A stretch of DNA of 49,586 nucleotides from assembly GCA_945882065.1 (NCBI GenBank), contig CAMCWI010000003.1, forward strand, positions 1-49,586, in the 5' to 3' direction. The stretch is from Akkermansia muciniphila (GTDB lineage Bacteria > Verrucomicrobiota > Verrucomicrobiia > Limisphaerales > JADLHS01). The first letter of the stretch is position 1; every line of letters starts with the position of its first letter. Shown here piece after piece: positions 3,644-29,910 of the stretch. The notes below the pieces were generated by a model, which saw nothing but the letters and a program-made list of their open reading frames with translations, ran no database searches and was not told where the DNA came from. Both the position numbers and the translations under genes were made by a program.

Positions 3644-5059
3644 TCATTTTGCCGACAGAACACGAATCTTGACGTTTCGATAGGACACTTCGTCACCGTG
3701 TTCTTGCAACAGGATGTGACCGTCAGCCCACTCGCCGAAGCTGGGGATGTTGTGATACTTGCTCGCCGCGACGAGCGCGCGGAAACTTTCCGAGCCGCGC
3801 TCAAAATTCACTGTCTCTTGGCCGTTCAACCAGAACGTGACGTGCTTGCCGCGCGATAAAATCCGCGCGGAGTTCCAGTCGCCGACCACAGAAACTTTTT
3901 TATCCGCAGGCGCGGGGATCAAATCGTAGAGCGAGCCGACTGTGCGATTGCCATTCTTGCCCAGCTTTGCGTCGGGATGTTTGGCGTCGTCGAGAACCTG
4001 AAACTCGCAGCCGATGGCCGAGCCGAGGCCGGTGGGTTTGCTGGTGACCTTGTCAATTGGCGAGAGGTTTGGCTGCACAAAAATCTTGATGCCGCTGTTC
4101 GCACCGGGCGTGATCTTGAACTCCGCCATCAACTCGAAGTCTGAGTAGCGCTGGCGCGTGATGATGTCACCGCCGCCGGACGTATCGTGAACCGTCAACA
4201 CGCCGTCCTTCATCGTCCAGCCGTGCGCCGGAAAGTTTTCCGACTTTGCGCTGCGCCAACCCTCGGAAGTTTTGCCATCCCAGAGCAACTGCCAGCCCGC
4301 AGTTTTTTCCTCCGCCGTGAGCGTATTGACCGCCGATGACGCGATGGCGGCATTCAGTTCGGTGATCTTCAGATTCCGCCAGCGCACTTGCGCGCCGTCC
4401 TTGTCAGTTTCCTTGGCGATGCCATGAACCTGCAACGCGATAAACCCACGCGGCGTCATCGAATCTTTCACGTCTGCGCACGGCGTGCCGTTGAGCCAAG
4501 TCTTGAGCGAATCGCCACGGGCCTCCACGCGCACATGATTCCAATCGCCCTGCTTGAAAATCTTCCGGCCTTGCTCGGTGAACGCCTTGCCGTTTCCGCC
4601 AGCGAATCCAGGATAAATCCATTTGCGCCGGCCCTCGTCGTAAAGCCCCGCACTCCACCAGCGATTCTGAATTGGGTTCGGATCAATCTCCACTTGGTAG
4701 CCGTGAACACGGCCCGCAGGGATGGCGATGGGTTTGCCTTCCCACTCGATTTGTTTTGCGGCGTCGAAACATTCGCTGCGGATCTGCACGCCGGAGTTCA
4801 GGCGCGGGTCCACTTTGAAATCGTATTCAAAGATGAAATCGCCGTAGGTCTTGTCGGTGCAAAGAAACGAATTGGGCGTGTTGAGCACACACGTTCCCAC
4901 GATGGCCTCGCCCTCGATGGTGTATTTGGCTTTGCCGCCGCGTTGCGTCCAACCGGAGAGATCTTTGCCATTGAACAAATCTGTCCCGGCTGACTCCGCC
5001 AATGCAGCAACGGCAACGCAGCACGACGCGAGCAGTGAGAAAGAATGGATAAGTTTCAT
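3644..5059 (-). CDS. Secreted tandem DUF1080 (3-keto-disaccharide hydrolase-like) protein
   Basis: Signal peptide followed by two domains, each with LF/WN/DGK..SGW, NSG and G.I.LQ.HG..V.(W/Y)RN motifs; ATG at 5059. Confidence 0.92.
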   Translation of the reverse strand: MKLIHSFSLLASCCVAVAALAESAGTDLFNGKDLSGWTQRGGKAKYTIEGEAIVGTCVLNTPNSFLCTDKTYGDFIFEYDFKVDPRLNSGVQIRSECFDAAKQIEWEGKPIAIPAGRVHGYQVEIDPNPIQNRWWSAGLYDEGRRKWIYPGFAGGNGKAFTEQGRKIFKQGDWNHVRVEARGDSLKTWLNGTPCADVKDSMTPRGFIALQVHGIAKETDKDGAQVRWRNLKITELNAAIASSAVNTLTAEEKTAGWQLLWDGKTSEGWRSAKSENFPAHGWTMKDGVLTVHDTSGGGDIITRQRYSDFELMAEFKITPGANSGIKIFVQPNLSPIDKVTSKPTGLGSAIGCEFQVLDDAKHPDAKLGKNGNRTVGSLYDLIPAPADKKVSVVGDWNSARILSRGKHVTFWLNGQETVNFERGSESFRALVAASKYHNIPSFGEWADGHILLQEHGDEVSYRNVKIRVLSAK

Positions 5060-5348
5060 AGAGACAATTTTGAAATGCGACGACAGGCTAACAATTGTGA
5101 CCGCTCTGGCAATCACTCAATCGGGTCAGTCGTCAGCATGGGTGTGATTGGAGGTCAGTGAGGCGCAGCGGAGAAAGAGGTGACCGAATCAAACAACGCA
5201 GGTAGTGAGTCCCTATGGACTCGGCGGGAAGTGGAGTGCCACGCCGCTTTCGTTCGCGCGGGACGGATGGAATGCCTCAGACGTTCAGCGGATAAAACTT
5301 TGTTTCCATGTCCCGCTCTTGTCTCTAATCTATGTCGGATTTTTCAGC

Positions 5349-6155
5349 GTGAGAAAATACTGGCATGTCATCGGCATCGGAGTTCAGAACAACCTGACAT
5401 ACAGGTTCAATTTTCTTGCGCGCACAGTGTTCGGTTTCATCCCGCTTACGGCCATTCTTCTGCTCTGGCGAAACATCTACGAAGGCAAGGGCGATGCCGC
5501 ATCCGTGGCCACGTTCACGCTGGCGCAGATGACGTCCTACTACCTGCTGGTCACACTCGTGGACGCCCTGACGGCGGTGAATGAAGACGACTGGCAGATC
5601 GCCGCCGACATCAAGGACGGCAATATTAGCCAGTTCCTGCTCAAGCCGGTGGATTATCTGTGGTTCAGGTTTTGTCTCTATCTCGCCGGGCGCGGAACGT
5701 ATCTCACCGTGGCCTTCATTCCGCTGGTGCTGGTCACAATTTATCTGCGCGATTATTTCGTTCTGCCACCGGACGCGGCGACGTTCGGTTTGTTTATGAT
5801 GTCGGTGCTGATGACGGCAATGCTGCAATTCTTCATCTCTTACACGATGGCCATGCTGGCGTTCTGGGTGATGGAAGTCTCGACGTTCATCTTCATCCTC
5901 TACGCGTTTGAATACATCGCCAGTGGCCACATGTTTCCGTTAGCAATCTTGCCGCAGGTGGTGCAGGACATTTTGTTTTTCACGCCGTTCCCGTATCAAC
6001 TGTATCTGCCGGTCGGGATTTATCTGGGCAAGATCACCGGTGCTGCCTTGGTCAATGGCTTGTTGGCGCAGGCAGGTTGGGTGGTGGGCGCGTATCTGTT
6101 GGCGCGGTTCGCTTGGTTTCGTGGGATCAAAAAATACGCCGCGGCGGGAGGTTGA
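5349..6155 (+). CDS. ABC-2 family (DUF990-type) permease
   Basis: About six hydrophobic segments; IAADIKDGNISQFLLKPVD and SGHMFPL; GTG start at 5349 inferred. Confidence 0.88.
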   Translation: MRKYWHVIGIGVQNNLTYRFNFLARTVFGFIPLTAILLLWRNIYEGKGDAASVATFTLAQMTSYYLLVTLVDALTAVNEDDWQIAADIKDGNISQFLLKPVDYLWFRFCLYLAGRGTYLTVAFIPLVLVTIYLRDYFVLPPDAATFGLFMMSVLMTAMLQFFISYTMAMLAFWVMEVSTFIFILYAFEYIASGHMFPLAILPQVVQDILFFTPFPYQLYLPVGIYLGKITGAALVNGLLAQAGWVVGAYLLARFAWFRGIKKYAAAGG

Positions 6156-6159
6156 TGAA

Positions 6160-7035
6160 ATGAGTCGAGAGCCGAAAGTCGAGAACCGAGAGACAAACGC
6201 GCCTGCGAGTGCGCCGCCGTCTCTCGACTCTCGACCTTCGATGCTCGGCAGATACGCTGGTATCTACGCCGCTCTGTGGAAAAACTCCGTGACGCGCGAG
6301 ACGATGTTCAAGGGCAATTTTCTGCTCTGGATCGTGGTGGAACTGGCGTGGTTCGCGTTGCAACTCGGTTTCATATCCGTGTTGTATCTGCACACGCAAC
6401 ATATCGGTTCATGGACGAAGTGGCAGGTCGTGTTGCTCGTCGGCGTGAGTCATTTCATCCAGCAACTCTTTCAGGCGTTCTTCCTCATCAACTGCGCAAA
6501 CCTATCGGAGTTGGTTCGTACGGGCAAAATGGATTTTCTCATGATGCTGCCGGTCAACACGCGCTTCGTGGCGTCGTTGCGACAAGTTGATCTCGGTGGT
6601 TTTGTGAACGCAGGTTCTGCGCTGGCCGTGATGATCTACGCGGCGCGTGAATTGCAACTCTCGCCCACGCTGCCGATGGCGGTGGGTTTCCTCGCATTGT
6701 GTTTCATCGGCATCTGCATCCATTATTGCCTGATGTTCTCGCTGGCGTCGGTGAGCTTCTGGACGGTGAAAGCGCAGGGAATTGTTCACGGCTACTACAA
6801 TCTGTTCAACATCGCGCGGATGCCGGACGACGCCTTTCCGCGAGGCGTGTTCAAAACGGTCTTCACATTCGCGCTGCCGGTGTTGCTCGTCTCGAATGTC
6901 CCGGCGCGCTTGCTCACGGATCGGCTGACGTCCAGTTCCTGTTTTCTGCTGGTGGGGATGGCCATCGCGTGCGCCTTCTTTTCCGAATGGGTCTGGCGTA
7001 TGTCGCTCAAACGCTACACAAGCGCGAGTTCGTAG
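6160..7035 (+). CDS. ABC-2 family (DUF990-type) permease
   Basis: LVRTGKMDFLMMLPVN, C-terminal LKRYTSASS and multiple TM segments; the start may instead be ATG 6241. Confidence 0.88.
   Translation: MSREPKVENRETNAPASAPPSLDSRPSMLGRYAGIYAALWKNSVTRETMFKGNFLLWIVVELAWFALQLGFISVLYLHTQHIGSWTKWQVVLLVGVSHFIQQLFQAFFLINCANLSELVRTGKMDFLMMLPVNTRFVASLRQVDLGGFVNAGSALAVMIYAARELQLSPTLPMAVGFLALCFIGICIHYCLMFSLASVSFWTVKAQGIVHGYYNLFNIARMPDDAFPRGVFKTVFTFALPVLLVSNVPARLLTDRLTSSSCFLLVGMAIACAFFSEWVWRMSLKRYTSASS
6161..6241. repeat. Heptamer inverted-repeat element (agtcgag-type units, then ctctcga-type units)
   Basis: agtcgag agccgaa agtcgag aaccgag ... ctctcga ctctcga ccttcga; the right arm is approximately the reverse complement of the left. 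Confidence 0.65.
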
Positions 7036-7298
7036 AGTTTGGAAACCACGAATGAACGGGCGTCCGTGGTTGAACTGCGTTTTCCAGATTTCATCCGTGG
7101 ATCACCCGACGAAAAGCCAGGACGATTATTTTTTCACAACCAGCTTCATGCAGCGGATCAAAACCTTCAAGTTTAAGCCAAGCCAGATGACCGCCCCTTA
7201 CCGCACTTTTTAATTTCCCATGAATATGAAATCCAGCGTGGACTTTCGCAGCGGGAATGACGCTTTTATGGACTGACAGGTTTGCTGAGTGATGCTTG

Positions 7299-10163
7299 TT
7301 AAAATTCGCAACCGACGGAAAGTCCGAACGTGATACCTTTGGTGTGGCTCTTGAGAATGGTTTTTTCGCCTGTCACCCAAGTCTGGCTGACCTCGTAGGA
7401 TGGATTCAGAAGATTTTTTGCCGACAACTTAAACTTCCAGTTTTTGCCGAGTTTTTGACTGAGGAACATGTCTAGTTGGGGAGCAGGCTCTTCGTATTCA
7501 TCCGGGCGGTTCAAATTCACAACCACCAATCGCGGACCGACAATGCCGTAAGAAATGGTAAATGCTGTTTTGGTGGGCTCGTGATCCCATGTCAGGTCCG
7601 TGTTGAAGACATATTCAGGCTGATCAAACATGGGTCGCGTGATCTTACCTCCGCGGACGTTACCCACTACGTTGACATTTCTCTGGATATCATTCAACGG
7701 AACTTCTGATTCGATATAGGTGGCATTGAATCCCAGTGTCAACTCCTTAAGTGGCGACCAAAGATTATCCAAACGGGAGCGGAACTCCGCCTCAACGCCC
7801 ATAATGTCCGCCTTTTCAAAATTCTCGTAAGTTAAGTTATCGCCAGAGAAATCAACGGTGTAGAGCTCGATCGGCGCGTCAATTTTTTTCATGAATAATG
7901 AAAGTGAAACGATTTCTCCGGGTCTAGGATACCATTCCAACCTCAGATCGTAATTGGCACTTTCAGAAAATGTGAGGTTGGGATTTCCGTAGTAAGTGCG
8001 GCTTTGAGCGATGTCATAAATCCCCACGGGAGCTATCTCTCGATAGGCAGGGCGGACGACCGTTTGTGACCACGCCGCACGCAACTGAAGCTTTTCATGC
8101 AAAAAAACGGTAGCACTTAGAGACGGAAGCAAGTCGGTACGATTCAGATTACCTGGCGTAAGTGCTCTCCTCGTGGACTGATTTTCGCCAGTAAGAGTCA
8201 ATTCAGTTTCTTCGACACGTACGCCCCCGACCAGTCGGAGTCTTTCAAAAGCCGCCCAATCGCCCATGAGATACGCTGCTTTAATAAGCTGACTGCCCTC
8301 ATAAGTGATGTTTGCTGGAAAGTTCCGGTATTCTGTAAGTGCTGCGTTGGCCGGGTCGAGGTAACTCTGGGGATCGCCACCTGTGTAAAAGGGATGCGCA
8401 AGACTCGGAGCACGCATATCAAAGCCACGTTGGTAGTAGTCGCGAGTGGAATCGCTGATAGCTGCGCCGGTTTTGAAAAAATTGTCTTTATCGTTGTAGG
8501 AGGGCATCGGGATTTTTAGGTCGCCCCGTAGATTGGTATTGTTTTCTTCCAGCTCCCGCCAAAACCTTGTCGGATAAGACGGTTCAGTTGCCGCTTGCGG
8601 CAGGTAAAATGAATTAATGTCATCTGCCACATATTGGAAGATTCGATAATCCGGTTCTTCTTGCGTTGCTGTGGACATTGACCCGGCCCAATCGAAGGCT
8701 GCATCTTTCAAGGACGGAAAGTCGTGCGAACCCGCGAGCTGATAAAAGGTCAGGTTGCGTTCAGTCCAGTGTAACAAGGATTGATCGAGGTAGGTCTCGC
8801 CGGGCGTGGTGCCCACGTTATCGTCTTGGCCTTTAAGCCGGCGGGCTTCATCCTCCGCCGCCTGCACAAAGAGGAAGTTAAATTTAAGCTCGTGATCCTC
8901 ACCAATGCCCAAAGTGAATGCAGTAGAAGCCGCCCATGTGTACTCGATGACAGCCTTGGCATCTACTTTATCACGGACAATCGCAGTCGGGGTTTCAAAT
9001 TTTCTGGAAACACCATTATCGTAAAACTTGTAATCGTTTTTATAGTTTAACGAGCCGAGGTATCCAAATTTAAGGGTGTCACCCTTGAAACTGTCGCCGA
9101 ACGTCACCGCCATGCTGGAGTTCAGCGGAGACTTTTCGGGAATGGGAGAAAGTTGTGTGGATTTGAAACTGCGTTCAACCGCAGCTTCATTCTGGATTGG
9201 GCCTGACGTCCCCGACGCGCTGGTGCTTCTGGCAATAGCTGGTAATTCGCGTGTTCCGTCGTCCATCGCCAGCCAGTCCGTACCTCCGCGATCTGTCATC
9301 AGGAAATTGTTGTTCAGGTTGGCCTGAGTGTTGTAAGACGTGCCAAGGCTGAATGTCAGCGTGCCTTTCTCGGGATAACTCTTGGTCACGATATCAATCG
9401 CACCGCCGGCAAAGCCGCCTGACATGTCCGGGCTGAATGTTTTTGCAACTTCCATCTTCTCGATGACCTGAGTTGGCAAGAGATCCAATTGCGCCGCCTT
9501 ACGATCTGGATCAGCACTCGGCAGATCGTTGCCGTTGATCGTGGTGGACGTATAACGATCCGCCAGACCGCGAATCACAGCGAACTTGCCGTCGGCAATA
9601 CTTGCTCCAGAGACTTTGGTCAACACTTCCGCCGCGTCGCTCGCGCCGGTTTTTTCAAACTGCTTTGAACCCACACTGTCCATCATCCCGCTGGATTCCT
9701 GACGCTCGATCATGATCTGCTCGGTCTGTTGCGTGAACTCTTCCGCCGTGACCTCGTATTCCTCCATCTCGTAAAACTCAGGGCGCAGATTTCCGTTCAC
9801 AGTTGTGATCTGTCCGGCAATAACGCGCACGTCTGTGACGACAGCCGCTGCGAAGCTGGACTTGGAGATGCGCAAAACCTGATCGCCAAGAGGAAGATTC
9901 TTAAGTTCAAAACGCCCTGTGCTATCTGTTTGCGCGGCGAGAGTTGTTCCACGCACTGTCACCGTGGCTCCGGGAATCGGTTTGCCGTCAAATGAGTTGA
10001 TCACCACGCCAGACACGGCACCAGCATCCTGCGCTTTTGAGGTCAGTGCGGAAATTAAAAGCACGAACGCAAACACGCATACTGTTCGAAGGGGAGACAC
10101 CAGCGCGTGTAGAGTCGCGTTCCATATCTTCGTCGAAATGTGGTGAGGGGATTTGGTTTCCAT
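7299..10163 (-). CDS. TonB-dependent receptor with N-terminal carboxypeptidase-regulatory-like domain
   Basis: Signal peptide; GKPIPGATVTVRGT domain; plug GKFAVIRGLADRY...EVAKTFSPD; C-terminal LSAKNLLN and terminal Phe. Confidence 0.93.
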   Translation of the reverse strand: METKSPHHISTKIWNATLHALVSPLRTVCVFAFVLLISALTSKAQDAGAVSGVVINSFDGKPIPGATVTVRGTTLAAQTDSTGRFELKNLPLGDQVLRISKSSFAAAVVTDVRVIAGQITTVNGNLRPEFYEMEEYEVTAEEFTQQTEQIMIERQESSGMMDSVGSKQFEKTGASDAAEVLTKVSGASIADGKFAVIRGLADRYTSTTINGNDLPSADPDRKAAQLDLLPTQVIEKMEVAKTFSPDMSGGFAGGAIDIVTKSYPEKGTLTFSLGTSYNTQANLNNNFLMTDRGGTDWLAMDDGTRELPAIARSTSASGTSGPIQNEAAVERSFKSTQLSPIPEKSPLNSSMAVTFGDSFKGDTLKFGYLGSLNYKNDYKFYDNGVSRKFETPTAIVRDKVDAKAVIEYTWAASTAFTLGIGEDHELKFNFLFVQAAEDEARRLKGQDDNVGTTPGETYLDQSLLHWTERNLTFYQLAGSHDFPSLKDAAFDWAGSMSTATQEEPDYRIFQYVADDINSFYLPQAATEPSYPTRFWRELEENNTNLRGDLKIPMPSYNDKDNFFKTGAAISDSTRDYYQRGFDMRAPSLAHPFYTGGDPQSYLDPANAALTEYRNFPANITYEGSQLIKAAYLMGDWAAFERLRLVGGVRVEETELTLTGENQSTRRALTPGNLNRTDLLPSLSATVFLHEKLQLRAAWSQTVVRPAYREIAPVGIYDIAQSRTYYGNPNLTFSESANYDLRLEWYPRPGEIVSLSLFMKKIDAPIELYTVDFSGDNLTYENFEKADIMGVEAEFRSRLDNLWSPLKELTLGFNATYIESEVPLNDIQRNVNVVGNVRGGKITRPMFDQPEYVFNTDLTWDHEPTKTAFTISYGIVGPRLVVVNLNRPDEYEEPAPQLDMFLSQKLGKNWKFKLSAKNLLNPSYEVSQTWVTGEKTILKSHTKGITFGLSVGCEF

Positions 10164-17345: not shown

Positions 17346-17567
17346 CTACGAATAATTCTCCATCCCCACGCAGGAACAGACCGGGTTGCGGGCGCCGAAG
17401 AAGTTGTCCACGCGGGCGACGGGTGCTTCTCCTTCTCCGCCTTGAGCGGGGAGAGGGCTGGGGAGGTGTCGAAATCTGCCGTAACCCATCCGCCGCTTTG
17501 CCACGTCCTCCGCAGTCGTTCCCTTGAACGCGCGCAGGTCGAGGATGCATTCGTGCGCGACGAGGCC
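17346..17567 (-). pseudogene. gcvP: Displaced, internally deleted copy of the gcvP 3' end
   Basis: [30 protein letters not shown] (17478-17567, matching 26845-26934) and [24 protein letters not shown] (17346-17420, matching 26485-26559). Confidence 0.9.
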
Positions 17568-18900: not shown

Positions 18901-20085
18901 TCACGCGGGCGTTTCGGCCAGCGCCAGCTTCTTATCAAACATGACGGTGTCGCTCATCTTGTGCTTGGACGCGGCGACGCGGCCGGCTGTGTATTTGTCC
19001 AACGCTTGCTGCATCTGGGTTTTGTGATTGGCGTAGTGCAACGCGGTTTCCGGAGCGATATCACCTGCGAGCACGGCGTTGATCAGAGATTGTTCGAAGC
19101 TATGCCAACCCCAAGGTGTGACACTGCTTTCGATGATCTCGTGTAGGTTGTGCTTCTCTGATTCCCCGGAGATGATGACTTCACGCGAGCGCATGTTGTT
19201 ACCCATGACTTCCGTGACCAACTGTAGTCCGCCATCCAGCCTTGGAACAAGCCGTTGACTCACCACCCAGCGCAACGCATCCGCCAACCGCTGCCGCATG
19301 AGGGATTCCTCGCCTTTGTCAAACATGCCCAAGACGCGGTTGATCGTCTGGCTTGCGTTGATCGTATGGAGAGACGAGAAAACGAGATGCCCCGTCTCGC
19401 CAGCGGTGATGGCGACCTCCATGGTTTCCCGATCCCGGATTTCGCCGACCATGATCGTGTGAGGTGACTGACGCAATGCCGCCTTGAGGCCCACCGCAGG
19501 ATCGAAGTAATCCTTGCCGTATTCGCGCTGACTGAACGTCGCTTGAATCGGTTCATGCAGATATTCGATGGGGTCTTCGAGGCTGATGACATGGATATCC
19601 TGGTTGAGATTGATTTCGTTCAAGATCGCCGCCAGCGTGGTCGTCTTGCCTGTGCCGGTGGCGCCGGTGATAAAAACCAATCCGGCGTTTTCGTGGATGA
19701 TCTGGTCAAAGACCGGGGGAACTTTGAGATCCTGAAGTTGCGGGATCGTGTTGGAGAGCTTACGCATGACGATCGCGCGATGTCCCCCTCGAGAATAGAT
19801 ATTGACCCGGAATCGCGCTACACCCGGCACGGAATAACTGCAATCGCACGAGCCGTTCTTGCGGTAGTTTTCCGCGACCAACTCATTGCCATCAATCAGG
19901 ACGTCAGACAATTGCGCCGTCATCTCGGTGGTGACGGGTTCAGCGATCAAATCACTGGTGTATGAACGCAATTTCCCATAACAGGACATCTGCGGCACCC
20001 GGCCGGGAATAAACAACAAGTCGGAAATGCCATTTTCACACAGGATCATGGCTATCAGCAGATCATTGAAACGCTTTTTATTCAT
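18901..20085 (-). CDS. pilT: PilT/PilU family type IV pilus retraction ATPase
   Basis: RFRVNIY, Walker A GATGTGKTT, LEDPIEYLH, ALRQSP..IMVGEIRD, ETGHLVFSSLHT and VVSQRLVP. Confidence 0.9.
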   Translation of the reverse strand: MNKKRFNDLLIAMILCENGISDLLFIPGRVPQMSCYGKLRSYTSDLIAEPVTTEMTAQLSDVLIDGNELVAENYRKNGSCDCSYSVPGVARFRVNIYSRGGHRAIVMRKLSNTIPQLQDLKVPPVFDQIIHENAGLVFITGATGTGKTTTLAAILNEINLNQDIHVISLEDPIEYLHEPIQATFSQREYGKDYFDPAVGLKAALRQSPHTIMVGEIRDRETMEVAITAGETGHLVFSSLHTINASQTINRVLGMFDKGEESLMRQRLADALRWVVSQRLVPRLDGGLQLVTEVMGNNMRSREVIISGESEKHNLHEIIESSVTPWGWHSFEQSLINAVLAGDIAPETALHYANHKTQMQQALDKYTAGRVAASKHKMSDTVMFDKKLALAETPA

Positions 20086-20244
20086 AAAAACATCTATCGG
20101 GGGGCCATTTAGCAATTTCCGTGACATTACAGAGCCGGTGTTTGAGTTGGCGGTTACCCATTCAAGACACGGGAAACTCTGGCGTTATGATACGAAGAGG
20201 CACAGAGGTGAACTGTGAAACAAACGAACGGTGCGCCGGCTATG

Positions 20245-20347
20245 CGCCCTCTCCTCATTCGGCGAGGAAAGGGCAGGGGGGAGGAGTCGTGTGCCTTTGG
20301 AATTAAAGCCCCTCACGTCGTTCGTCTCCCCGTTTTAGCGGGGAGAA
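20245..20347. repeat. REP-like hairpin cluster (ctctcccc..ggggagag family)
   Basis: ccctctcctc..gaggaaaggg and tctccccg..cggggaga hairpins; resembles the filler at 17421-17477. Confidence 0.5.
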
Positions 20348-20408
20348 GCGCGCAAGCATTTGGTTCTTCACAGAAGTTCTCTGTTCCCCTAAAGTCTTGA
20401 CTAGAATC

Positions 20409-22694
20409 ATGAAGTCAAAGGAATCTCCGAACGAGCCGGGCCGTCTCGCCGCGCTCGATCGCTATGCGGTGCTGGACACGCCGGCGGAAGTAGAGTTTGA
20501 TGATTTTACGAAGCTCGCCTCGCAGATTTGCCAGACGCCCATCGCGCTGATTTCGCTGCTGGATGAGCGGCGGCAGTGGTTCAAGAGCAAGGTGGGCCTC
20601 GAGGTCGCTGAGACGCCCCGGAATCTCTCCTTTTGCCAGCACACCATCCAGGGGTCGGAGCTGCTCGAAATCCCCGATGCCCGGCAGGACGAACGTTTTC
20701 GCGACAATCCGCTAGTGACCGGGGAGCCCCGCATCCGCTTCTACGCAGGGGCGCTCCTCACCACCCCGGACGGCTATAACCTCGGAACGCTCTGCGTCAT
20801 TGATCGCGTGCCTCGCGATCTCACAACCGAACAGCGAGACGGGCTCAATCGACTGGCCCGTCAGGTGATGACGCAACTGGAATTGCGGCGGTCCCGAGAG
20901 GAATTCCGTCAGGAGTTGGCGGCGCGGCAGGCGGCGGAGGGACGACTGCGGCGTGCCAGCGACTTACTCTCGGCTGTGGGCCAGCTGCAAGCGGGTTATA
21001 TCAACAAGGTCAAGATAGACTCGGCGGAAACTTTCGACGCCCTTCTGAAGCTGATATTGAGCTTTACGAACAGTGAATACGGTTTTGTGGCTGAAGTGCT
21101 GCGTGATGGCCAAGGCCGACCCTACCTCAAGACCCATGCGATTACGAACATCGCCTGGAACGAGGAGATGCGGGCTTTTTACGAAAAGCACAAAGCCGCG
21201 GGCTTGGAATTCCATAACCTCAAGACCCTGTTCGGCGCCGCCCTCACTACGGGTGAAACGGTCATCGCCAACGCGCCGGACACCGACCCCCGCGGGGGAG
21301 GTCTGCCGCCGGGCCATCCGCCGATGAACTCTTTTCTCGGGGTGCCCATCAAGCACGGCGGCGAACTGATCGCCATGGTGGGCGTGTCCAACCGGCCGGG
21401 CGGCTACGATGAGACGCTGGTCGAGGAAATCGACCCGCTCCTGTCCACCTATTCCACCATCATCAGGGGCTTCCAGTTAGCGAAGCAGCAACGCGCCGAC
21501 CAGCAGCGGATTTTGGCGTTGAATGAGGACTTGGAAGCCCGCGCCGGCGAACTGGCGAAGGCGCAGCAAGAGAAAGACCGCGCGGAGCGCGAGCGTTTGG
21601 AAGCCCTGCAGGAGCATTCGGCCGGTCTGGAGCGGCGGGTCGCCGAACGCACGGTAGAACTGGAGCGAACCCGCCGGCAGTTTGAGGACCTGTTTGAGTT
21701 CGCGCCGGACGCGTTGGTGATGATGGATCAGGCGGGGAGAATCAAACTGATCAACTCTCAGGCCGAGCAGCTGTTCGGTTGGACCCGTGCGGAATTAGTG
21801 GGCCAGGCGGTGGATATCTTGATGCCGAGCCCTCTGCGGGCCGGTTATCTCACCCAGCGCAACCGTTTTCTCCAGGCGGCCAAGGCCCGACCGATGGGGT
21901 CGGGTAAAACCAATCTGCTGGGCCTGCGCAAGGATGGGACGGAATTCTCCGTGGAAATCAGCCTCAGCCCGGTGCAAACGGCGGAAGGCACGCTGGTGGC
22001 CGCCGCCGTGCGAGACATCTCCGAACGCAAGCAATTGGAGCAGGAGTTGGCGCGCCTCAGTTCCCATGAGCAGGAACGCCTCGCCTATGAGTTGCACGAC
22101 CATTTTGGTGCGTATCTGGCCGGCATCGCATTCCGCATCAAAACGCTGTCGGAAGACTTGGGACGGCGCGCCATGCCCGAGGCGGTCATGGCCCAGCAGT
22201 TAGTCCTGCAAGTCAATGCCGGCATTGACCAGGTCCGGAATTTTGCCCGGCTGCTCGTCCCGGTGAATCTGGCCGCGGGGGGGCTCGCGGCGGGATTGTC
22301 CCAGATGGGGAAAGAGATGGAGACGGTTTTTAACATTGTTTGCCGGGTGACAGTGTCGCCGGAGCTGCCGCCGCTGACCCAGGATCAAAGCCTGCAACTT
22401 TACCGCATCGCCCAGGAAGCCGCGCGCAACGCGATCCAGCACGGCAAGGCCCGACAGATCACGCTCTCCATCCGGTGCGACACGGAGAGCCTGATTCAAA
22501 CGGTTACGAACGATGGCAAAACCTGGAATATTGAACATGTTTCCTCTGTGGGACTGGGGCTGCGCATCATGCGGCATCGCGCGGCCACCCTCGGTGGCAC
22601 GCTGACCCTCAAATCCAATCCCGCCGGCCATACGGAGGCCATCTGCCGGGTGCCGCTCGCGACGATCACCCAAAGGGAAAACTCTAGCGCATGA
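20409..22694 (+). CDS. Soluble GAF-GAF-PAS sensor histidine kinase (HisKA_3 type)
   Basis: GAF (ALISLLD.RQWFKS...IRFYAGA), second GAF ([13 protein letters not shown]), PAS (APDALVM...RKDG.EF.VEISLSP), H-box [15 protein letters not shown] and GLGL; no TM segment seen. Confidence 0.92.
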
Positions 22695-23341
22695 AAAAAC
22701 TCCGCATTTTGATCGTGGATGACCACCCGTTTTTTCGGAGCGGTCTGGTGCAATGGTTGAATCACCAGGAGCGGGTGACCAGCTGCGGGGAGGCTGGCTC
22801 GGCGGCAGAGGCCCGGAGTGCCGTGGCTGAATTGCAGCCCGACGTTGTTCTCATGGACCTGCGATTGGGGGATGGCGACGGCTTGAATCTGATCCGGGAG
22901 CTGTCGTCCGAATATCCGCAGATGCGATTTTTAGCGCTGTCCCAGTTTGATGAAGACTTATACGCCCACCGCGCCATGCAGGCTGGCGCCCGGGGTTACC
23001 TGATGAAATCCGAGGCCACCGAAACGGTTCTGGGGGCAATTGAAACGGTGGTACAAGGGGGCATTCATCTCAGCCCGCAGATGGCGGCCAAGCTGCTCCA
23101 AAACATCTTCCCGGATCCGTGCTCCAAAACGGTAAATCTGGCCAAGTTATCCGACCGGGAATTTCAGGTGTTTCAACTGTTGGGCTGCGGCCGGAGCACA
23201 CTCCAGATCTCGGGGCATTTGAAGCTCAGCCCCAAGACGGTTGAGACCTATCGTGAGCATCTCAAAAAAAAGCTGAATCTGCCGGATGGACCGGCGTTGT
23301 TACGTGCCGCGACGATTTGGACAGAATCCGGCACATTGTAG
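22691..23341 (+). CDS. NarL/FixJ family response regulator
   Basis: [20 protein letters not shown] and Lux[13 protein letters not shown]...SPKTVETYR; ATGA overlap with the kinase. Confidence 0.95.
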
Positions 23342-23470
23342 AGTAGCCAACCCACTGCCCGTACCGCGCCCGATGGCGGCATTGAGCCCGGCTGGGCTTG
23401 CCGCAAAAAAATCCTCCGGCCCGAGATCCCTGCCTGTGTGCCATCGTGTTCCGCCCCTGTGGCAGCCGGT

Positions 23471-23510
23471 GTAAGGGTAACCTTTACTCCGAATAGTGGT
23501 GTTCACCTGA
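23471..23510 (+). promoter_or_regulatory. Putative response-regulator binding sites upstream of the PAS protein gene
   Basis: Near-perfect 17-bp palindrome gtaagggtaacctttac (7 of 8 pairs) followed by a weaker one, tagtggtgttcacctga. Confidence 0.35.
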
Positions 23511-23717
23511 TGGCGCGCCGTGCCCCTCTCTGCAACTATAAGCCTCGGTAAATAACGGCGTATGAACCATGATCTATAATTTCACTCTGTACCCTTTGAC
23601 CACCCTGCTGGGTACGCCACCTCTCGTCACGGCGCTCTGCCCGGCAAGCGCTTTGTGCGTGAGAATGTTTCCGCGTGTGGCTTTTATTTTCTGCTCTCTC
23701 TTATGTCTATCCCTGTC

Positions 23718-24749
23718 ATGAAACCTCGCTTATCTCTTATTCTGCTCGGCTTTTTGCTGGCGGCTGCTCCCCTAGGTCGCGCCCAGAGTCTGCTGACCAC
23801 GTTGCCCGTTTTCACCAACGCTTGGGATCTGGCTCATATCCGCGTTTTGGACAAGGACACCAACAGCCTGATTGTTAATGCCAATCAATTGTATCTGGAA
23901 AATCTGCAGGGCGGCGGCCTTGCATGGGTCACCAACTTGGAGAGCATTTTGGGCAAGACGGTCTATGACTTTTACGCGGTCGCCAAGGCTGATGCCTTGC
24001 ATGCCGAGGAGCAGCAATGCCTCGCCACCGGCTTGACCATAGATAAGCTTATCCAACTCTCCCCGTTCGGGACTCCGGCCTCCTGGCAGCATATGAATTT
24101 GAGCCTGCTGAAGGATGATCAGGGCAGGCCTTATGGCTTTCGTTGGCAGTTTTACCCCGTCCCCGCCCCCGGCCAGACCCACATCCCGGACGCCACCAAT
24201 GTGTGGCAGGCCACCCAGCTGTTCATCAGCGACAAAGATACGAACAGTATCATCATCAATGCGAACAGCAATTACATCGCCTCATTGCAGGGTAAATTCC
24301 CCGAGATCCAATCCGTGACCAACCTGATCGGCCGTGACGACTATTATTTCTACCCGACGGCGGATGCGGATAAATTCCGTGCAGACGACCATCAGGTCAT
24401 GACCACGGGGATCGGCTACCATGCCGTGGAAGCCAACCAGCAGATCGGCGGGCCGGTGACCTATCTCGACGTCACCAAGACGCCGCTGCGGGACGCGCAG
24501 GGGAACGTGTTTGGGGTGCATCTCGAATTCTTCGCCCTGCCGCAACTCAGCTTGCAGCGGGTCGCCAGCGGGGGCGCGGAGCTTTTCTGGCCTGCCGAAC
24601 AAAGCGTTTACCGTGTCCAAGAGTCCGCCTCCGTCAGCGGACCGTGGACGAACTCTATGGCCACGCCCGTCATTTCTGGCGGACAGTTCCGGGCGGCGGT
24701 AACCCCAGCGGGGGGTAACCGGTTTTATCGGTTGATAAAAAATCCGTGA
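23718..24749 (+). CDS. Signal-peptide-bearing tandem PAS (PAS_4-like) protein with C-terminal FYRL domain
   Basis: MKPRLSLILLGFLLAAAPLGRA/Q signal; two homologous repeats (DKDTNS.I.NAN ... IG(K/R)..YDF/YYF ... TPLRD..G.V.GV); ~70-aa tail ending NRFYRLIKNP. Confidence 0.8.
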   Translation: MKPRLSLILLGFLLAAAPLGRAQSLLTTLPVFTNAWDLAHIRVLDKDTNSLIVNANQLYLENLQGGGLAWVTNLESILGKTVYDFYAVAKADALHAEEQQCLATGLTIDKLIQLSPFGTPASWQHMNLSLLKDDQGRPYGFRWQFYPVPAPGQTHIPDATNVWQATQLFISDKDTNSIIINANSNYIASLQGKFPEIQSVTNLIGRDDYYFYPTADADKFRADDHQVMTTGIGYHAVEANQQIGGPVTYLDVTKTPLRDAQGNVFGVHLEFFALPQLSLQRVASGGAELFWPAEQSVYRVQESASVSGPWTNSMATPVISGGQFRAAVTPAGGNRFYRLIKNP

Positions 24750-25010
24750 GAGCCGACCCGAAACACATTTTGAATCGACCATAAAAGTGAAGAACAAACT
24801 GACTCAGATCTTCGGCTGGGTGTTTCCGGTGGTGTTCTTCATCTCCCTTGGCAAGTCTCTCCGCGCAGGTCAATTTGCTGCGGCACGCCGCCGGGCCGTC
24901 AAAACACTAATTTCCTATTAGCACCGGCCGCGTTGCCGTTAGCCGCCCCATTTTTGGGGTGGGAGCATTTGTCGCTGACGGCAAGGACGAACGGCGAGCA
25001 CCCCGCCAAG

Positions 25011-25099
25011 CGCCACTCGCCCGTGCCCACAATGAAATCGCCCAAGTAACGCAGCCGGAGCGGGTGCGCGCCGCACGGGCCAAGGTTTTAACCGTGGAT
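25011..25099 (+). repeat. 89-bp direct repeat, copy 1
   Basis: 87 of 89 positions identical to 26241-26329; internal inverted pair gcccgtgc/gcacgggc. Confidence 0.92.
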
Positions 25100-25182
25100 G
25101 ATTCCGATTCAGCCAGTTCGCCGGGCAAAACACGGTTGCTACAACCTAACGAGTGCTTTACCTTCGGGCCAACAGGTTCGAT

Positions 25183-25404
25183 ATGTCAGACCAAGATATT
25201 CAAAAGCTAGAAAGCCAGTTTCCGGCAATTTCCAGCTCGGCTTTCGCTACCGCGCGTGAACGGGTTTTGAAGTCGGGGCAAAGTGTCTTGCAGTCCGAGA
25301 ACGGCGTTATCTATGAGGTTTTCCCCGATGGCCGGCGCGTGGAAGTGAAACGGATCGATCCGCCCACTCAATTCAAAACCGGGAGCATCTTCACGATCAA
25401 GTGA
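25183..25404 (+). CDS. Putative antitoxin partner of the zeta-like ATPase
   Basis: 73 aa; stop overlaps the GTG of the downstream gene; GQSVL..ENG.IYEVFPDG resembles small genes that accompany COG4185 proteins. Confidence 0.65.
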   Translation: MSDQDIQKLESQFPAISSSAFATARERVLKSGQSVLQSENGVIYEVFPDGRRVEVKRIDPPTQFKTGSIFTIK

Positions 25405-26147
25405 GCGCGGCGATTCCACGGCTGCGCATGTTCGCCGGGCCTAATGGTTCAGGCAAAAGCACCTTAAAAACCTATCTACCCGCATCGTTGCTGGGCGTTT
25501 ACCTGAACCCCGATGAGATCGAACAGGAAATCCGGCAGCAGGGCCTGCTTGATTTTGCTGCGTATGGCGTGAGCACGACTGGCGACGATGTAATCCCATT
25601 TTTCAGCACTTCTGAATTTCTAAAGCAAGCCGGTCTTTCGGATGTCGCCAACCGACTTACCTTTGCCGACGGGCGATTGGATTTTTCACAGGTGGAAGTG
25701 AATTCGTATCTGGCCTCGGTCACCAGCGATTTACTTCGGCAGAAACTTCTCGCTCAGAAACTCTCAGTCACATTTGAAACCGTCATGTCGCATCCCAGCA
25801 AGGTGGACATTCTCATTCAAGCACAGGCGGCGGGCTTTCGGACCTATCTCTATTTCGTGGCCACCGACGACTCCGCCATCAACATTTCGCGCGTGCGCAA
25901 CCGGGTGGCACTGAAAGGGCATAATGTGCCAGAAGATAAGATCGTGACTCGCTACCACCGCTCACTGAATTTGTTGGTTAACGCCATCCGATATACTAAC
26001 CGGGCTTACATCTTCGACAATTCCGGGGACAGCAAAGACGGCAAGCAAACCTGGCTGGCGGAAATCACCGAGGGAAAACAGTTGGAATTGAAGACCGACA
26101 AAATCCCTGCGTGGTTCAAGCGGTCAGTGCTGGATAAAATCTGCTAG
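25401..26147 (+). CDS. Zeta-toxin-like P-loop ATPase/kinase (COG4185 type)
   Basis: MFAGPNGSGKST, LNPDEI, FETVMSH, RVRNRV..GHNVPEDKI..RY.RS and IFDNS. Confidence 0.85.
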   Translation: MSAAIPRLRMFAGPNGSGKSTLKTYLPASLLGVYLNPDEIEQEIRQQGLLDFAAYGVSTTGDDVIPFFSTSEFLKQAGLSDVANRLTFADGRLDFSQVEVNSYLASVTSDLLRQKLLAQKLSVTFETVMSHPSKVDILIQAQAAGFRTYLYFVATDDSAINISRVRNRVALKGHNVPEDKIVTRYHRSLNLLVNAIRYTNRAYIFDNSGDSKDGKQTWLAEITEGKQLELKTDKIPAWFKRSVLDKIC

Positions 26148-26240
26148 CCACTCCGCCCCACCTCGGCTTCTAAGCATTCCAACACCTCGCGCATGAACTT
26201 GGAGTGGATTTTGCCAAGCGGCAACAGCCAGCCCAGCAAC

Positions 26241-26329
26241 CGCCACTCGCCCGTGCCCACAATGAAATCGCCCAAGTAACGCAGCCGGAGCGCGTGCGCG
26301 CCGCACGGGCGAAGGTTTTAACCGTGGAT
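26241..26329 (+). repeat. 89-bp direct repeat, copy 2
   Basis: Offset 1230 bp from copy 1; internal 10-bp perfect inverted pair tcgcccgtgc/gcacgggcga. Confidence 0.92.
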
Positions 26330-26385
26330 CAGAAGCGCTGAACGCGGATTCCATTCAACGCGAAGTCGTGTCTCTGTCTCCAGCG

Positions 26386-26456
26386 TTGCAGCGGCGCTCT
26401 GTGAGCGCTGATATTTCTGCATGGCCTGCAACGGCGGTCGTAGACTGCCGCTACAA
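26386..26456. repeat. Degenerate REP doublet
   Basis: tgcagcggcgctctgtgagcgctg ... cggcggtcgtagactgccgctaca; two hairpins with G(T/C)AG...CTAC ends. Confidence 0.55.
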
Positions 26457-26484
26457 TCCATGTTTCATCTGTGTGGCTCTGTGG

Positions 26485-29334
26485 CTAGGAATAATTCTCC
26501 ATCCCCACGCAGGAGCAAACTGGATTCCGATCTCCAAACACGTTGTCCACCCGAGCTACATGCGGCCAAAACTTGTATTCATGGAGAAACTTCGCGGGGA
26601 ACGCGGCCTGTTCGCGCGTGTAAGGTTTGTTCCAGTTATCCGAGGCAATCATATCCGCAGTATGAGGAGCACCTTTGAGCAAATTGTTCTTAGGATCCAC
26701 TGAACCATTTTCCACGGCGGCCATTTCGGCGTGGATGGAGATCATCGCATCGCAGAAACGGTCGAGTTCGTATTTGGATTCGCTTTCGGTGGGTTCGACC
26801 ATAAGCGTGCCGGCGACGGGCCACGAGAGCGTCGGCGGGTGAAAGCCGTAATCCATCAGCCGCTTCGCCACGTCCTCGGCGGTGACGCTGTGGAACGCGC
26901 GCAGATCGAGGATGCATTCGTGCGCGACGAGGCCGTTGCTGCGGTAGAGCGTCGGGAAATGTTTTTCGAGCCGCTTGGAAATGTAATTCGCGTTGAGGAT
27001 GGCGAACTTCGTCGCTTCGGTCAGCCCGTCCGGGCCCATCATCGCAATATACATCCACGAGACGGTGAGAATGCTCGCGCTGCCCCACGGCGCGGCAGAA
27101 ACCGCCCCGATGGGACTTTCGCCACCGAGATTGATGACGTTGTGGCCGGGCAGAAATTCCACGAGATGTTCCGCCACGCCGATCGGTCCAACGCCCGGTC
27201 CGCCGCCGCCGTGCGGAATACAAAACGTCTTGTGCAGATTCAAATGGCAGACGTCCGCGCCGATGAAGCCGGGGCTGGTGAGGCCGACTTGCGCGTTCAT
27301 GTTCGCGCCGTCCATGTAAACCTGGCCGCCGTTCGCGTGGATGATGTCGCAAATCTCGCGGATGGTTTCCTCGAACACGCCGTGCGTGGACGGATAGGTG
27401 ATCATCAGACACGAGAGATCGGCCTTGTGCGCCTCGGCTTTCGCGCGCAGGTCGGCGACGTCAATGTTGCCGTTGGTGTCGCATGCGACGGCGACGACTT
27501 TCATGCTGGCCATGACGGCGCTGGCGGGATTCGTGCCGTGCGCGGAGGTGGGAATGAGACAAACGTTACGATGCGTGTCGCCGCGCGATTCGTGATAGGC
27601 GCGGATGACGAGCAACCCGGCGTATTCGCCCTGCGAACCGGCGTTGGGCTGGAGGGAAATGCCGGCGAACCCGGTGATCTCCGCGAGCCAGGTTTCAACT
27701 TGCTCAAACATTTTCTGATAGCCGCGCGTTTGTTTGATCGGCGCGAACGGATGAATCTTGGCGAACTCCGGCCACGACACAGGGAACATTTCCGCCGCCG
27801 CGTTGAGCTTCATGGTGCACGAGCCGAGCGGAATCATCGAAGCCGTGAGCGAGAGATCGCGCGATTCGAGCCGCTTGATGTAGCGGAGCATCTCCGTTTC
27901 GCTATGATACGAATTGAAGACCTTGTGTTGAAGGAAGTCGGAGATGCGGTCGCAGGCGTGTTGCGTATTGCGTGTTGCGTGTTCAAGCGCGTCCGCCAAG
28001 GTGAAGTCTGGAGCTTTGTCGTTGTTGAAGACTTGCCAGAGTTCGACGACATCGTTTGCGCTGGTGGCTTCATCGAGCGAGATGCCGATGGCCTTGTCGT
28101 CAATGGCGCGGAGATTGATGCGATGCGCTTCGGCGATCTTCAAGATGTCAGCGGACTTCTTGTCGCCAAGATTGATCTTCAACGTATCAAAGCGCGGCGT
28201 GGTGGCGACTTGGCAACCGAGCCGTTCCAGACCGGTGGCCAGAACTTCGGTCAGCGTGTGAACGCGTTGCGCAATCTGCTTCAATCCTTCCGCACCGTAA
28301 TAGCAGGCATAGAGCGAGGCCATGTTCGCGAGCAGTGCCTGCGCTGTGCAGATGTTGCTGGTGGCCTTCTCGCGGCGGATGTGTTGCTCGCGTGTGCCGA
28401 GGGCGAGGCGCAACGCAGGCTTGCCGCGCGCATCTTTGGAGACGCCGACGATCCGTCCGGGCATCTGGCGTTTGAATTCATCGCGCGTGGAGAAGAACGC
28501 GGCGTGCGGTCCACCGTAACCGAGCGGCACGCCGAAGCGTTGCGCACTGCCAACCGCGATGTCCGCGCCGAATTCACCGGGCGGCTTGATGAGCGTGAGT
28601 GCCAGCAGATCGGTCGCGACCGTGACCATCGCGCCAGCGGCGTGAGCTTTTTCCGTGAAGGGTTCGAAATTATGGATCGCACCGAACGTGTCGGGATATT
28701 GAACGAGCGCACCGAAGACCTGGTCGTTGAACTCGAACTTCTCGTGATTGCCGATGACGGCCTCAATGCCCAGCGCCTTGGCGCGAGCAGAGACGACCTC
28801 GATGGTTTGCGGATGGCAGGCTTCCGAGATGAAGAAAACATTCCGTCCATCTTTCAAGCGTGACGACATCGTCATGGCTTCGGCGGCAGCGGTGGCTTCA
28901 TCTAGCATCGAGGCATTCGAGATGTCCAGCCCGGTCAATTCCGTGGCGAGCGTTTGAAAATTCAGCAGCGCTTCGAGTCGGCCTTGGGAAATTTCCGCTT
29001 GGTAAGGTGTGTATGGCGTGTACCAACCGGGATTCTCCAGCACGTTACGCTGGATGACCGGCGGCGTGATCGTGTCGTAGTAACCCATGCCGATGAACGA
29101 ACGGAAAACCTGATTCTGCGCCGCGATGGATTTCAATTCGCGCAGGGCGTCAAACTCGCTCAACGCGGCGGGAAGGTCGAGCGGTTTGCCAAGACGGATT
29201 TGTTTCGGCACGGCGGCATCGGTCAGCGCGTCGAGCGAAGTGTGGGCGAGGAATTTCAATATCTCCGCCGTCTCAGTTATGTTCGGGCCGATGTGGCGGC
29301 GGACGAATTGATCCGGGTGCGACAAGTTTTTCAT
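26485..29334 (-). CDS. gcvP: Glycine dehydrogenase (decarboxylating), glycine cleavage system P protein
   Basis: [54 protein letters not shown] and GGGGPG; the start may be 29364. Confidence 0.98.
27956..27983. repeat. Four tandem heptamers (gcgtRtt) inside gcvP
   Basis: gcgtgtt gcgtatt gcgtgtt gcgtgtt, read as [10 protein letters not shown] in the GcvP inter-domain linker. Confidence 0.85.
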
Positions 29335-29493
29335 GTTTGATTGCTGCGCGTCTGAAAAAGACATGGAGGGAAGATTAGCGGGCGCGATGGGCGCGGGCAA
29401 AAAGAATCAGAAGTGTTTTTGAGGGGTATGAAAGGAAAAGGCCCTCACTATTGCCTGATTGCCGAGGGCAGGGCGGGTATTTAGGCTTGGGGC

Positions 29494-29910
29494 ATGAGTT
29501 CGTTTGCAGTCAGCATTGAAAAGGAAGCTCAACTTGCCCAGCGCATGACTGTGTTGGGCGTGCGTGAGGCGGATATCGAGGAGTCGTTCGTGCGGTCGGG
29601 CGGACATGGCGGGCAAAACGTGAACAAGGTTTCCACCTGCGTGATGCTCATGCATCGTCCGACGGGTTTGCAGGTGAAATGTCAGACGACGCGGCAGCAG
29701 GGGTTGAATCGTTTCATGGCGCGGCATGTGTTGCTGGACAAGATTGCGGCGCAACGTCAGGCGCAGGTCAAAGCGGAGCGAGATCGTGTGGAGAAGTTGC
29801 GTCGCTCGAAACGCAAACGGTCAAAGGGAGCAAAGGAGCGGATACTCGCAGACAAGTCACGTCACTCGGCGAAGAAGTCTTCCCGACGTGGGAAGTTTTC
29901 TGACGATTAA
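29494..29910 (+). CDS. Stand-alone GGQ peptidyl-tRNA hydrolase domain protein (ArfB/RF-1-like ribosome rescue factor)
   Basis: [34 protein letters not shown] and a highly basic C-terminal tail. Confidence 0.88.

Follow-up and report, generated by a model that had tools for sequence, protein, structure and literature searches.

How does a PAS domain, a sensor module usually described as cytoplasmic, come to stand behind a predicted signal peptide, and what might it do once outside? The question is raised by a gene at 23718–24749 of a 49,586-nucleotide stretch of DNA from Akkermansia muciniphila (assembly GCA_945882065.1, contig CAMCWI010000003.1), which at its full length is called the window here. 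The product of this gene departs from the usual description through its predicted signal peptide and through the extracytoplasmic fusions found in its family. As judged from sequence, it is probably a small, stand-alone protein exported by the Sec pathway and composed of two PAS_4 domains and a lineage-specific end domain. What appears to be new is an exported branch of a cytoplasmic sensor domain, with the binding of a small ligand outside the cytoplasm as its most likely role. A role as exported ligand binder, sink or signal carrier had already been proposed in a first-pass annotation of the window; we infer the same, and the proposal is sharpened by a likeness to a known ligand-binding PAS domain, that of VqmA.

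The available text of PMC4822843 gives 74% of PAS domains as confidently intracellular and assigns the solved "extracellular PAS" domains to Cache, and, according to that of PMC10468136, every extracytoplasmic PAS domain studied by experiment was afterwards reassigned to Cache. At the level of sequence and fold, the exported PAS_4 branch is a clean counter-example to the cytoplasmic rule as these two reviews present it. In the portions of the literature at hand, periplasmic or extracytoplasmic PAS domains figure only as parts of membrane receptors and no free exported tandem PAS protein is described, with the proviso that the localisation tables of PMC4822843 may list extracellular PAS_4 domains. 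The family evidence set out below suggests that a classical PAS cavity could work outside the cell with no transducer spanning the membrane.

Predicted export, fold and family of the tandem PAS protein

The gene and the parts of its product are as follows (ORF, open reading frame; HMM, hidden Markov model; pLDDT, predicted local distance difference test; AF2, AlphaFold2).

23718–24749, plus strand: tandem-PAS gene, 343 aa plus stop (ORF and translation; identical 343-aa public protein P0002)
23718–23783, plus strand: predicted Sec-type signal peptide, residues 1–22, predicted cut after GRA (charge, hydrophobic core, small residues at −3 and −1, hydropathy, low pLDDT)
23796–24164, plus strand: PAS domain 1, residues 27–149, diverged copy (repeat HMM match at 27–149)
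24174–24545, plus strand: PAS domain 2, residues 153–276, canonical copy (repeat HMM match at 153–276; best PAS_4 stretch 199–267)
24555–24746, plus strand: C-terminal β-sandwich "FYR" tail, residues 280–343 (own-genome HMM, AF2 model)

The reading frame is open from 23580 and offers two candidate starts, GTG 23655 and ATG 23718. The latter is the likely start, since homologues begin at the charged start of the hydrophobic segment, and its product (P0001) matches P0002 with the same length and 100% identity and coverage. The N-terminus, MKPRLSLILLGFLLAAAPLGRA (residues 1–22), is followed by QS and is tripartite, as expected of a signal-peptidase-I signal: two N-terminal positive charges, an uncharged hydrophobic core of 15 residues, and glycine at −3 with alanine at −1. 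The Kyte-Doolittle mean of this segment is 1.49 in a 19-residue window, and residues 1–29 are disordered in the structure model, with pLDDT below 50. There is no cysteine in the signal region, hence no lipobox, and no twin arginine; a hydropathy scan of the whole protein found no second hydrophobic segment beyond the N-terminus. An uncharged hydrophobic stretch at the N-terminus is shared by 23 of 31 family proteins. Six of the remaining eight begin inside or at a PAS domain or lack a Met start, one (P0017) is a frameshifted fragment, and one (P0024) has no evident signal. Because signal peptides and extracytoplasmic fusion partners occur together in the family, export of this PAS branch is well supported at the level of sequence, and the first-pass claim that the window protein is exported almost certainly holds on the same two grounds.

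Both domains are recognized by Pfam as PAS_4 (PF08448; E = 5.4e-11, 43.1 bits against a cut-off of 23.1, in two stretches), and residues 23–150 and 151–275 are homologous to each other, with 32% identity over 123 aa (BLAST E = 4e-25). No other Pfam family lies above its cut-off in the protein, including any output or helix-turn-helix (HTH) domain, and the NCBIfam scan gave no match. The motifs quoted in the first-pass annotation, its signal peptide (GRA/Q) and its two homologous PAS_4 domains were thus all recovered in the translation, by Pfam and by internal BLAST, and Pfam and hydropathy agree with it that output and anchor domains are lacking.

A structure model was built with AF2 on a 10-sequence family alignment (A1); it has a mean pLDDT of 80.8 and a predicted template modelling score (pTM) of 0.66, and consists of two β-β-helix-β-β-β PAS units and a six-strand C-terminal sandwich. 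Its best Foldseek matches in the Protein Data Bank (PDB) are classical tandem PAS structures: MmoS (3ewk, E = 5.9e-10), HIF-2a/ARNT, NPAS4/ARNT2, PpsR, PERIOD and DosP. In the model the N-terminal PAS helices span six residues each (35–40 and 162–167), and the long helix that defines Cache is absent; in the Pfam scan of the protein no Cache family appeared at E ≤ 10. As modelled, both domains are PAS in the strict sense and not Cache, which bears out their first-pass assignment to the classical type. Cache/PDC sensors (LuxQ, CitA, DcuS, chemoreceptors) are likewise PAS-like folds that bind small ligands outside the cytoplasm, but they lie between two transmembrane (TM) helices of proteins with output domains and carry the long N-terminal helix, according to the available text of PMC4822843, whereas the window protein is free-standing. 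A search of the ESM Atlas returned only generic PAS clusters, with scores of 0.82–0.84 that are below a meaningful level. Heme, flavin or another chromophore was considered as a cofactor and set aside: the protein has no CXXCH motif, a single cysteine (C101), and no twin-arginine signal of the kind that export with a folded cofactor would presumably involve.

A word-indexed protein search yielded 20 proteins at E ≤ 1e-3, and an exhaustive search of 1.84 billion representatives yielded 3010 at the same threshold, only 14 of them at E ≤ 1e-30. Beyond these approximately 14 clusters, the closest sequences come from long histidine kinases with many PAS domains, P0027 among them. By source name or record title the close relatives are Verrucomicrobiota, Limisphaerales, Verrucomicrobiales and Verrucomicrobiaceae metagenome-assembled genomes, and the family, as these matches delimit it, is small and restricted to Verrucomicrobiota. 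The cytoplasmic multi-PAS kinases of Planctomycetota, Verrucomicrobiota and others, which are nearest to it from outside (E = 1e-48 to 1e-14), have the same lysine and aromatic motifs, but they possess HisKA/HATPase outputs and no signal peptide, whereas the exported family is devoid of kinase and other output domains.

Family proteins contain between one and six PAS repeats: two in P0006, P0007, P0010–13 and P0025, three in P0004, P0005 and P0008, four in P0003 and six in P0022. The repeats are joined by a conserved Pro-rich linker, IPAPNQT.IP. This linker, at window protein residues 147–156 (nt 24156–24185), is near-invariant in the family, with P149, P151, Q153 and T154 invariant in alignment A1; the family version contains an N-x-T motif where the window protein has G-Q-T.

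Nine longer family proteins were scanned with Pfam, and extracytoplasmic domain families were found in eight of them. TctC is fused to the PAS unit in P0026 and P0033, Peripla_BP_6/ANF_receptor in P0020, P0030 and P0046, and OpuAC together with Peripla_BP_6 in P0032; P0023 combines it with PPC and immunoglobulin-like (Ig) domains, and P0024 with Calx-beta, CarboxypepD_reg and BACON_2. The same types of fusion are encoded at two genomic loci, L161 (PAS-PAS-TctC) and L157 (OpuAC-PAS-Peripla_BP_6). No kinase, cyclase, HTH or membrane segment is present in the scanned fusion proteins or in those of these two loci. The solute-binding families concerned (TctC, Peripla_BP_6, OpuAC) resemble the window protein in being exported, soluble binders of small ligands without an output, and are fused to some of its relatives, but their fold is unrelated to PAS, and the window protein has neither such a domain nor an adjoining transporter gene. 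The last 325 residues of P0023 are 69% identical to the window protein. P0023 (1558 aa) is a PPC/Ig exoprotein bearing a signal peptide and an FYR tail of its own, to which a PAS-PAS-tail unit is joined directly; this unit has no signal peptide inside P0023, and the whole chain holds three FYR domains.

Likeness to VqmA and the proposed binding role

Among proteins of solved structure, the best sequence match of the window protein by itself is VqmA (E = 0.002, bit score 20.7). A profile of 10 repeats (alignment A4) matches 4 of 177,635 distinct PDB sequences at E ≤ 0.01, all of them VqmA: 6ugl, 6kju and 6ide at about 4.4e-9 to 4.8e-9, and 7dwm at 2.6e-3. According to the available text of PMC8284805, these four are VqmA of V. 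cholerae and phage VP882 with 3,5-dimethylpyrazin-2-ol (DPO) bound. In VqmA, F67 and F99 stack on DPO and K101 forms a hydrogen bond with it, and the substitutions F67A and K101R abolish its binding, as the accessible part of 10.1101/2019.12.19.881847 reports. Domain 2 of the window protein aligns to VqmA residues 21–114, with the following correspondences.

VqmA K23: K173 in domain 2
VqmA Y36: Y186 in domain 2
VqmA F67: F220 in domain 2
VqmA D71: D224 in domain 2
VqmA D85: E238 in domain 2
VqmA H87: N240 in domain 2
VqmA F99: V252 in domain 2
VqmA K101: K254 in domain 2

In 70 exported repeats, lysine occupies the K101 position 62 times and tyrosine or phenylalanine the F67 position 66 times. 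The two domains of the window protein have fared very differently: none of 41 family-conserved columns is changed in domain 2, whereas 18 of 45 are changed in domain 1, including K128L at the K101 position, and L94 stands at the F67 position (alignment A1). P0023, the closest relative, shares 81% identity with the window protein in domain 2 but 56% in domain 1.

The PAS domain of VqmA is the only solved structure family matched by the repeat profile, and it has the PAS_4-type fold and K23, Y36, F67, D71 and K101 in common with the exported repeats. VqmA is, however, a cytoplasmic transcription factor with a C-terminal LuxR-type HTH, whereas the window protein has a predicted signal peptide, two PAS domains, no HTH and a tail resembling fibronectin type III (FN3) domains; sequence identity between the two is low. 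The window protein is VqmA-like in its pocket residues, yet it is not a VqmA.

We hold with moderate confidence that it is an exported protein made of two VqmA-like PAS_4 domains and an FN3/Ig-like FYR domain, and that it binds a small ligand outside the cytoplasm. A family of Verrucomicrobiota would have moved a cytoplasmic PAS repeat out of the cytoplasm and put it to use either alone or fused to periplasmic solute-binding and other extracellular domains. Each canonical repeat would bind a small molecule in the PAS cavity through the conserved lysine and aromatic pair, as VqmA does. In the window protein, binding would fall to domain 2, through K254 and F220, and domain 1, its pocket residues lost, might serve as a partner or scaffold. 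The tail may retain the protein at the surface of the cell envelope or within it, a part that it may also play for about 80 other exoproteins of the same genome. Since there is no output domain, the protein would be a binder, acting in ligand capture, buffering or hand-over, rather than a transducer.

Several observations weigh against this interpretation. The lysine and aromatic positions are equally conserved in the cytoplasmic multi-PAS relatives (lysine in 471 of 492 repeats, tyrosine or phenylalanine in 369 of 492), so that what these residues mark is a VqmA-like PAS subfamily rather than a ligand. Where VqmA has F99, its third contact, the exported repeats have valine or threonine, and PAS domains can act purely as protein–protein modules. 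The tail is internal in P0020, P0031, P0033 and, for two of its three copies, in P0023, and P0008, P0009, P0015, P0016, P0029 and P0046 lack it, so that export in the family does not depend on it. Finally, the gene is rare, a homologue of P0001 at E ≤ 1e-25 being present in three of 300 other genomes of the order and in none of six of the genus (92–96% complete), and because of this rarity its role must be dispensable.

A more specific version of the binding role, with only an outside chance of being correct, makes the exported repeats an extracellular VqmA-type autoinducer receptor that binds a diffusible pyrazinone, DPO-like or other small heterocyclic signal and acts as a sink, buffer or carrier. 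If this were true, the fusions with solute-binding domains could pass the ligand to uptake systems, freshwater Verrucomicrobia could intercept or hoard the chemical signals of other bacteria, and a sensing or binding role outside the cytoplasm would for the first time belong to a bona fide PAS family. For the binding role in general, the likeness of the pocket to that of VqmA gives a first class of ligands to test, and the search for a ligand is feasible because the protein is small and soluble and offers one canonical and one degenerate pocket.

The C-terminal FYR domain

The tail was followed through the genome to which the window belongs (3.86 Mb in 348 contigs, 89.7% complete) by iterating an HMM on its six-frame ORFs, which gave 86 domains in 80 ORFs; 73 of the 86 end within 12 residues of the stop. 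The typical ending is [FY][FY]R[LV]xx(P), and the window protein ends in FYRLIKNP. An HMM made without the window protein, from others of this genome, matches residues 280–339 (E = 8e-15). The first-pass annotation had likened the tail to the C-termini of many exported Pedosphaera-type proteins, and the genome supports a C-terminal module common to exported proteins. Of the 50 tail ORFs that reach 400 aa, a Pfam scan covered 40, and these contain unrelated extracellular domains: Ig_3 in nine, I-set in eight, Laminin_G_3 in four, FGE-sulfatase, YHYH and PATR in three each, and, as single cases, a glycoside hydrolase family 5 (GH5) cellulase, subtilase, non-specific endonuclease, chondroitinase B, alpha-amylase, melibiase and carbohydrate-binding modules (CBMs). 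Of 66 tail ORFs that could be assessed, 46 have a start resembling a signal peptide, whereas in the background set 229 of 600 do (Fisher p = 1e-6); the heuristic behind these figures is crude and loose, as the background rate indicates, and was used only for this comparison. A PAS protein is thus one more type of cargo for a tail of Verrucomicrobia that is missing from the catalogues.

Modelled alone with AF2, the tail is a six-strand sandwich with a pLDDT of 89.8. Its fold neighbours are FN3/Ig-like, the best being a cytokine-receptor FN3 domain (Z = 7.3, root-mean-square deviation 2.8, 72 aligned residues), and the Fn3-like structure 3mpc aligns with Z = 5.2 and 26% identity; these Z scores are middling and may reflect only a common arrangement of strands. 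The Pfam fn3 family (PF00041) matched none of 36 tails, and the model has six strands against the seven of FN3. The same 36 tails share no Pfam or NCBIfam family at E ≤ 1, the C-terminal domain (CTD) profiles of the type IX secretion system (T9SS) included.

The first-pass annotation had taken the tail for a putative sorting signal. This is not upheld, given its internal position in P0023 and in the fusions of PAS with solute-binding domains, which bears directly on the question, and given that no known sorting family was matched. From its sequence, the tail behaves as a folded domain that usually comes last rather than as an obligatory export signal. A signal of the PEP-CTERM or LPXTG type was rejected for it as well, the tail being a folded six-strand domain without a hydrophobic helix. 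In function, the T9SS CTDs of Bacteroidota offer an analogy, as they too are small β-sandwiches that end many unrelated exported enzymes and adhesins of a single genome; unlike them, the FYR tail, so far as the analogy can be carried, matches no curated profile and is sometimes internal or in tandem. SprA_N of T9SS was not found in the genome, but the control genomes were equally silent, so that this result is uninformative.

PEP-CTERM matches do occur on other ORFs of the genome, 21 in all, and the exosortase PF09721 was not found at its 89.7% completeness. Six of the 21 lie within 1.5 kb of an ORF with an FYR tail, for instance at 8624–9124 of contig C35, 2814–3893 of contig C62 and 5877–9084 of contig C76 (all of the window's own genome, G000), and in three cases the PEP-CTERM gene precedes the tail ORF on the same strand, with 7–119 bp between the two.

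Neighbouring genes and the remaining explanations

A two-component system lies directly upstream of the PAS gene, on the same strand.

20397–22694, plus strand: soluble histidine kinase, GAF-GAF-PAS-HisKA_3-HATPase (Pfam; possible regulator of the PAS gene)
22691–23341, plus strand: response regulator of the NarL/LuxR type, Response_reg and GerE (Pfam; possible regulator of the PAS gene)
23342–23717, plus strand: intergenic region 5' of the PAS gene, 376 bp (one RNA-library contig covers 23557–23707)

The start of the regulator overlaps the stop of the kinase by 4 nt. A small ORF and a zeta-toxin/AAA-like ORF follow downstream of the PAS gene. No sigma-70-like promoter was found in 23200–25450, where two weak terminator-like sites, neither of them in the 376-bp intergenic region, are fewer than in shuffled sequence, and an Rfam scan of 23300–25450 gave no family at E ≤ 1.

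It is possible, although distinctly less probable than the binding role itself, that the PAS gene is a regulated target or accessory of this NarL-type system, the soluble kinase sensing a cytoplasmic cue and the regulator switching the PAS gene on. Such an arrangement is compatible with a binding role and would add a functional unit to it. The order and strand of the three genes speak for it, as does the absence of the kinase, the regulator region and the PAS gene alike from five congeners. Of eight family loci with usable flanks, moreover, three have a HisKA_3 kinase within approximately 2 kb: the window, L158 and L004. With 18 HisKA_3 genes in the 3.86 Mb of the window's own genome, two of the seven other loci would be reached by chance with a probability of roughly 0.02–0.05, an estimate that assumes an equal density of kinases in the other genomes. 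Against this, the flanks examined at the other five loci (L002, L003, L160, L161 and L157) contain no such kinase, a gap of 376 bp separates regulator and PAS gene, and the three adjacent kinases are alike only in the generic catalytic part (24–27% identity) and differ in sensor domains and orientation.

Transcriptional coupling of the PAS gene to the two-component system is accordingly no better than suggestive. The adjacency of kinases does not count as evidence of a conserved system, and it speaks against a direct interaction of the exported protein with these kinases, none of which has a TM-like segment. The solubility that the first-pass annotation ascribed to the neighbouring kinase and regulator fits this, the kinase having no TM-like window; its idea that the exported protein works with the two-component system is not upheld, as kinases occur near three of eight loci with sensor parts that are not orthologous and without a membrane segment. 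The PAS domain of the kinase might have sensed the same ligand on the inside, but no sign of this was seen: the profile of exported repeats against the kinase PAS domain has an hhalign probability of 0.4%. Of the free-standing homologues, the one encoded at L158 is closest (53% identity across 317 aligned aa), and L004 encodes a PAS-Peripla_BP_6 fusion followed by a multi-PAS HisKA_3 kinase. Beside the homologue in L158, a convergent cluster (2595–8814, minus strand) comprises a CheB/CheR-PAS_10 fusion, a PAS hybrid kinase with a receiver, a HisKA_3 kinase and a NarL-type regulator.

Less likely again is a structural or adhesive surface protein, in which the PAS repeats would be beads for protein–protein contact or oligomerisation and bind no small ligand. 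The variable number of repeats (one to six) on a conserved Pro-rich linker would suit such a protein, as would the attachment of the PAS unit to large Ig/PPC/Calx-beta exoproteins, and the PAS domain of VqmA doubles as a dimerisation domain in the available text of PMC8284805. The polar pocket residues are, however, conserved across the repeats beyond the needs of a spacer, and the fusions to solute-binding domains point to small-molecule chemistry.

These fusions, to three different solute-binding families, might instead suggest a periplasmic co-sensor. Once loaded with ligand, it would attach from outside to a receptor or transporter in the membrane, in the manner of LuxP with LuxQ or of solute-binding proteins with kinases and chemoreceptors; that membrane receptors can be stimulated by solute-binding proteins is described in the accessible text of PMC8050422. 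We consider this somewhat more doubtful than a surface protein. No gene for a membrane receptor or for an ATP-binding cassette (ABC) or tripartite tricarboxylate (TTT) transporter was seen next to the PAS gene in the window, and the adjacent kinases are excluded as docking partners because all three are without a TM-like segment. Least favoured is a protein not exported in soluble form, either held by an uncleaved signal anchor or cytoplasmic from another true start: the upstream GTG would add 21 residues and the signal-peptide heuristic is positive for many random ORFs (the 229 of 600 above), but homologues begin right at the charged n-region, the fusion partners belong to extracytoplasmic families, and even an anchor with a positive N-terminus would leave the PAS domains outside.

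An exported binder of small ligands thus remains the preferred reading, and its gene sits in a variable part of the genome. Across 19000–29500 of the window, only gcvP is conserved at the DNA level in the five congeners, and the kinase was not found in them apart from a GAF piece in one. The first-pass description of the locus as the best candidate here for an undescribed system was overstated: what is present is one accessory gene in a variable island, with no conserved multi-gene system.

As to occurrence and expression, the stretch of DNA is held, at half or more of the sampled words, by 14 runs of eight lake-water or freshwater studies, two of the runs possibly being its source. Four RNA libraries, each of a different study, include contigs that align to parts of 23557–24779 with 93–100% identity, and none cover 22282–23550 or 24820–25101. 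The libraries were chosen for holding the gene and DNA carry-over is possible, and contigs of this kind cannot show absence, starts or levels; they give a weak hint that the PAS gene is transcribed.

A degraded copy of the 3' end of gcvP is present at 17346–17567, in direct orientation and approximately 9.1 kb from the stop of the intact gene. It is 80% identical over 75 nt to 26485–26559 and 86% over 90 nt to 26845–26934, and a 179-aa ORF matches GcvP2_C. Between the two copies lie genes for a BRO-N protein, a PilT-like ATPase, the kinase, the regulator, the PAS protein and a toxin-antitoxin-like pair. Bracketed in this way by a degraded gcvP end and the intact gene, the block of approximately 9 kb looks like a strain-specific island. 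Its left border rests on the gcvP remnant alone, since a search for the empty site in 12 kb beside gcvP of one congener (G051) found no genes in common with the left flank in the window. Congeners carry extra fragments of the gcvP end near gcvP, and the 3' end of this gene looks like an integration hot spot, no integrase having been identified. Within the block, a direct repeat of 101 nt, 94% identical between its copies (24999–25099 and 26229–26329), flanks the ORF at 25153–25404 and the zeta-toxin/AAA-like ORF at 25401–26147, which suggests that the toxin-antitoxin-like pair is a separately inserted cassette.

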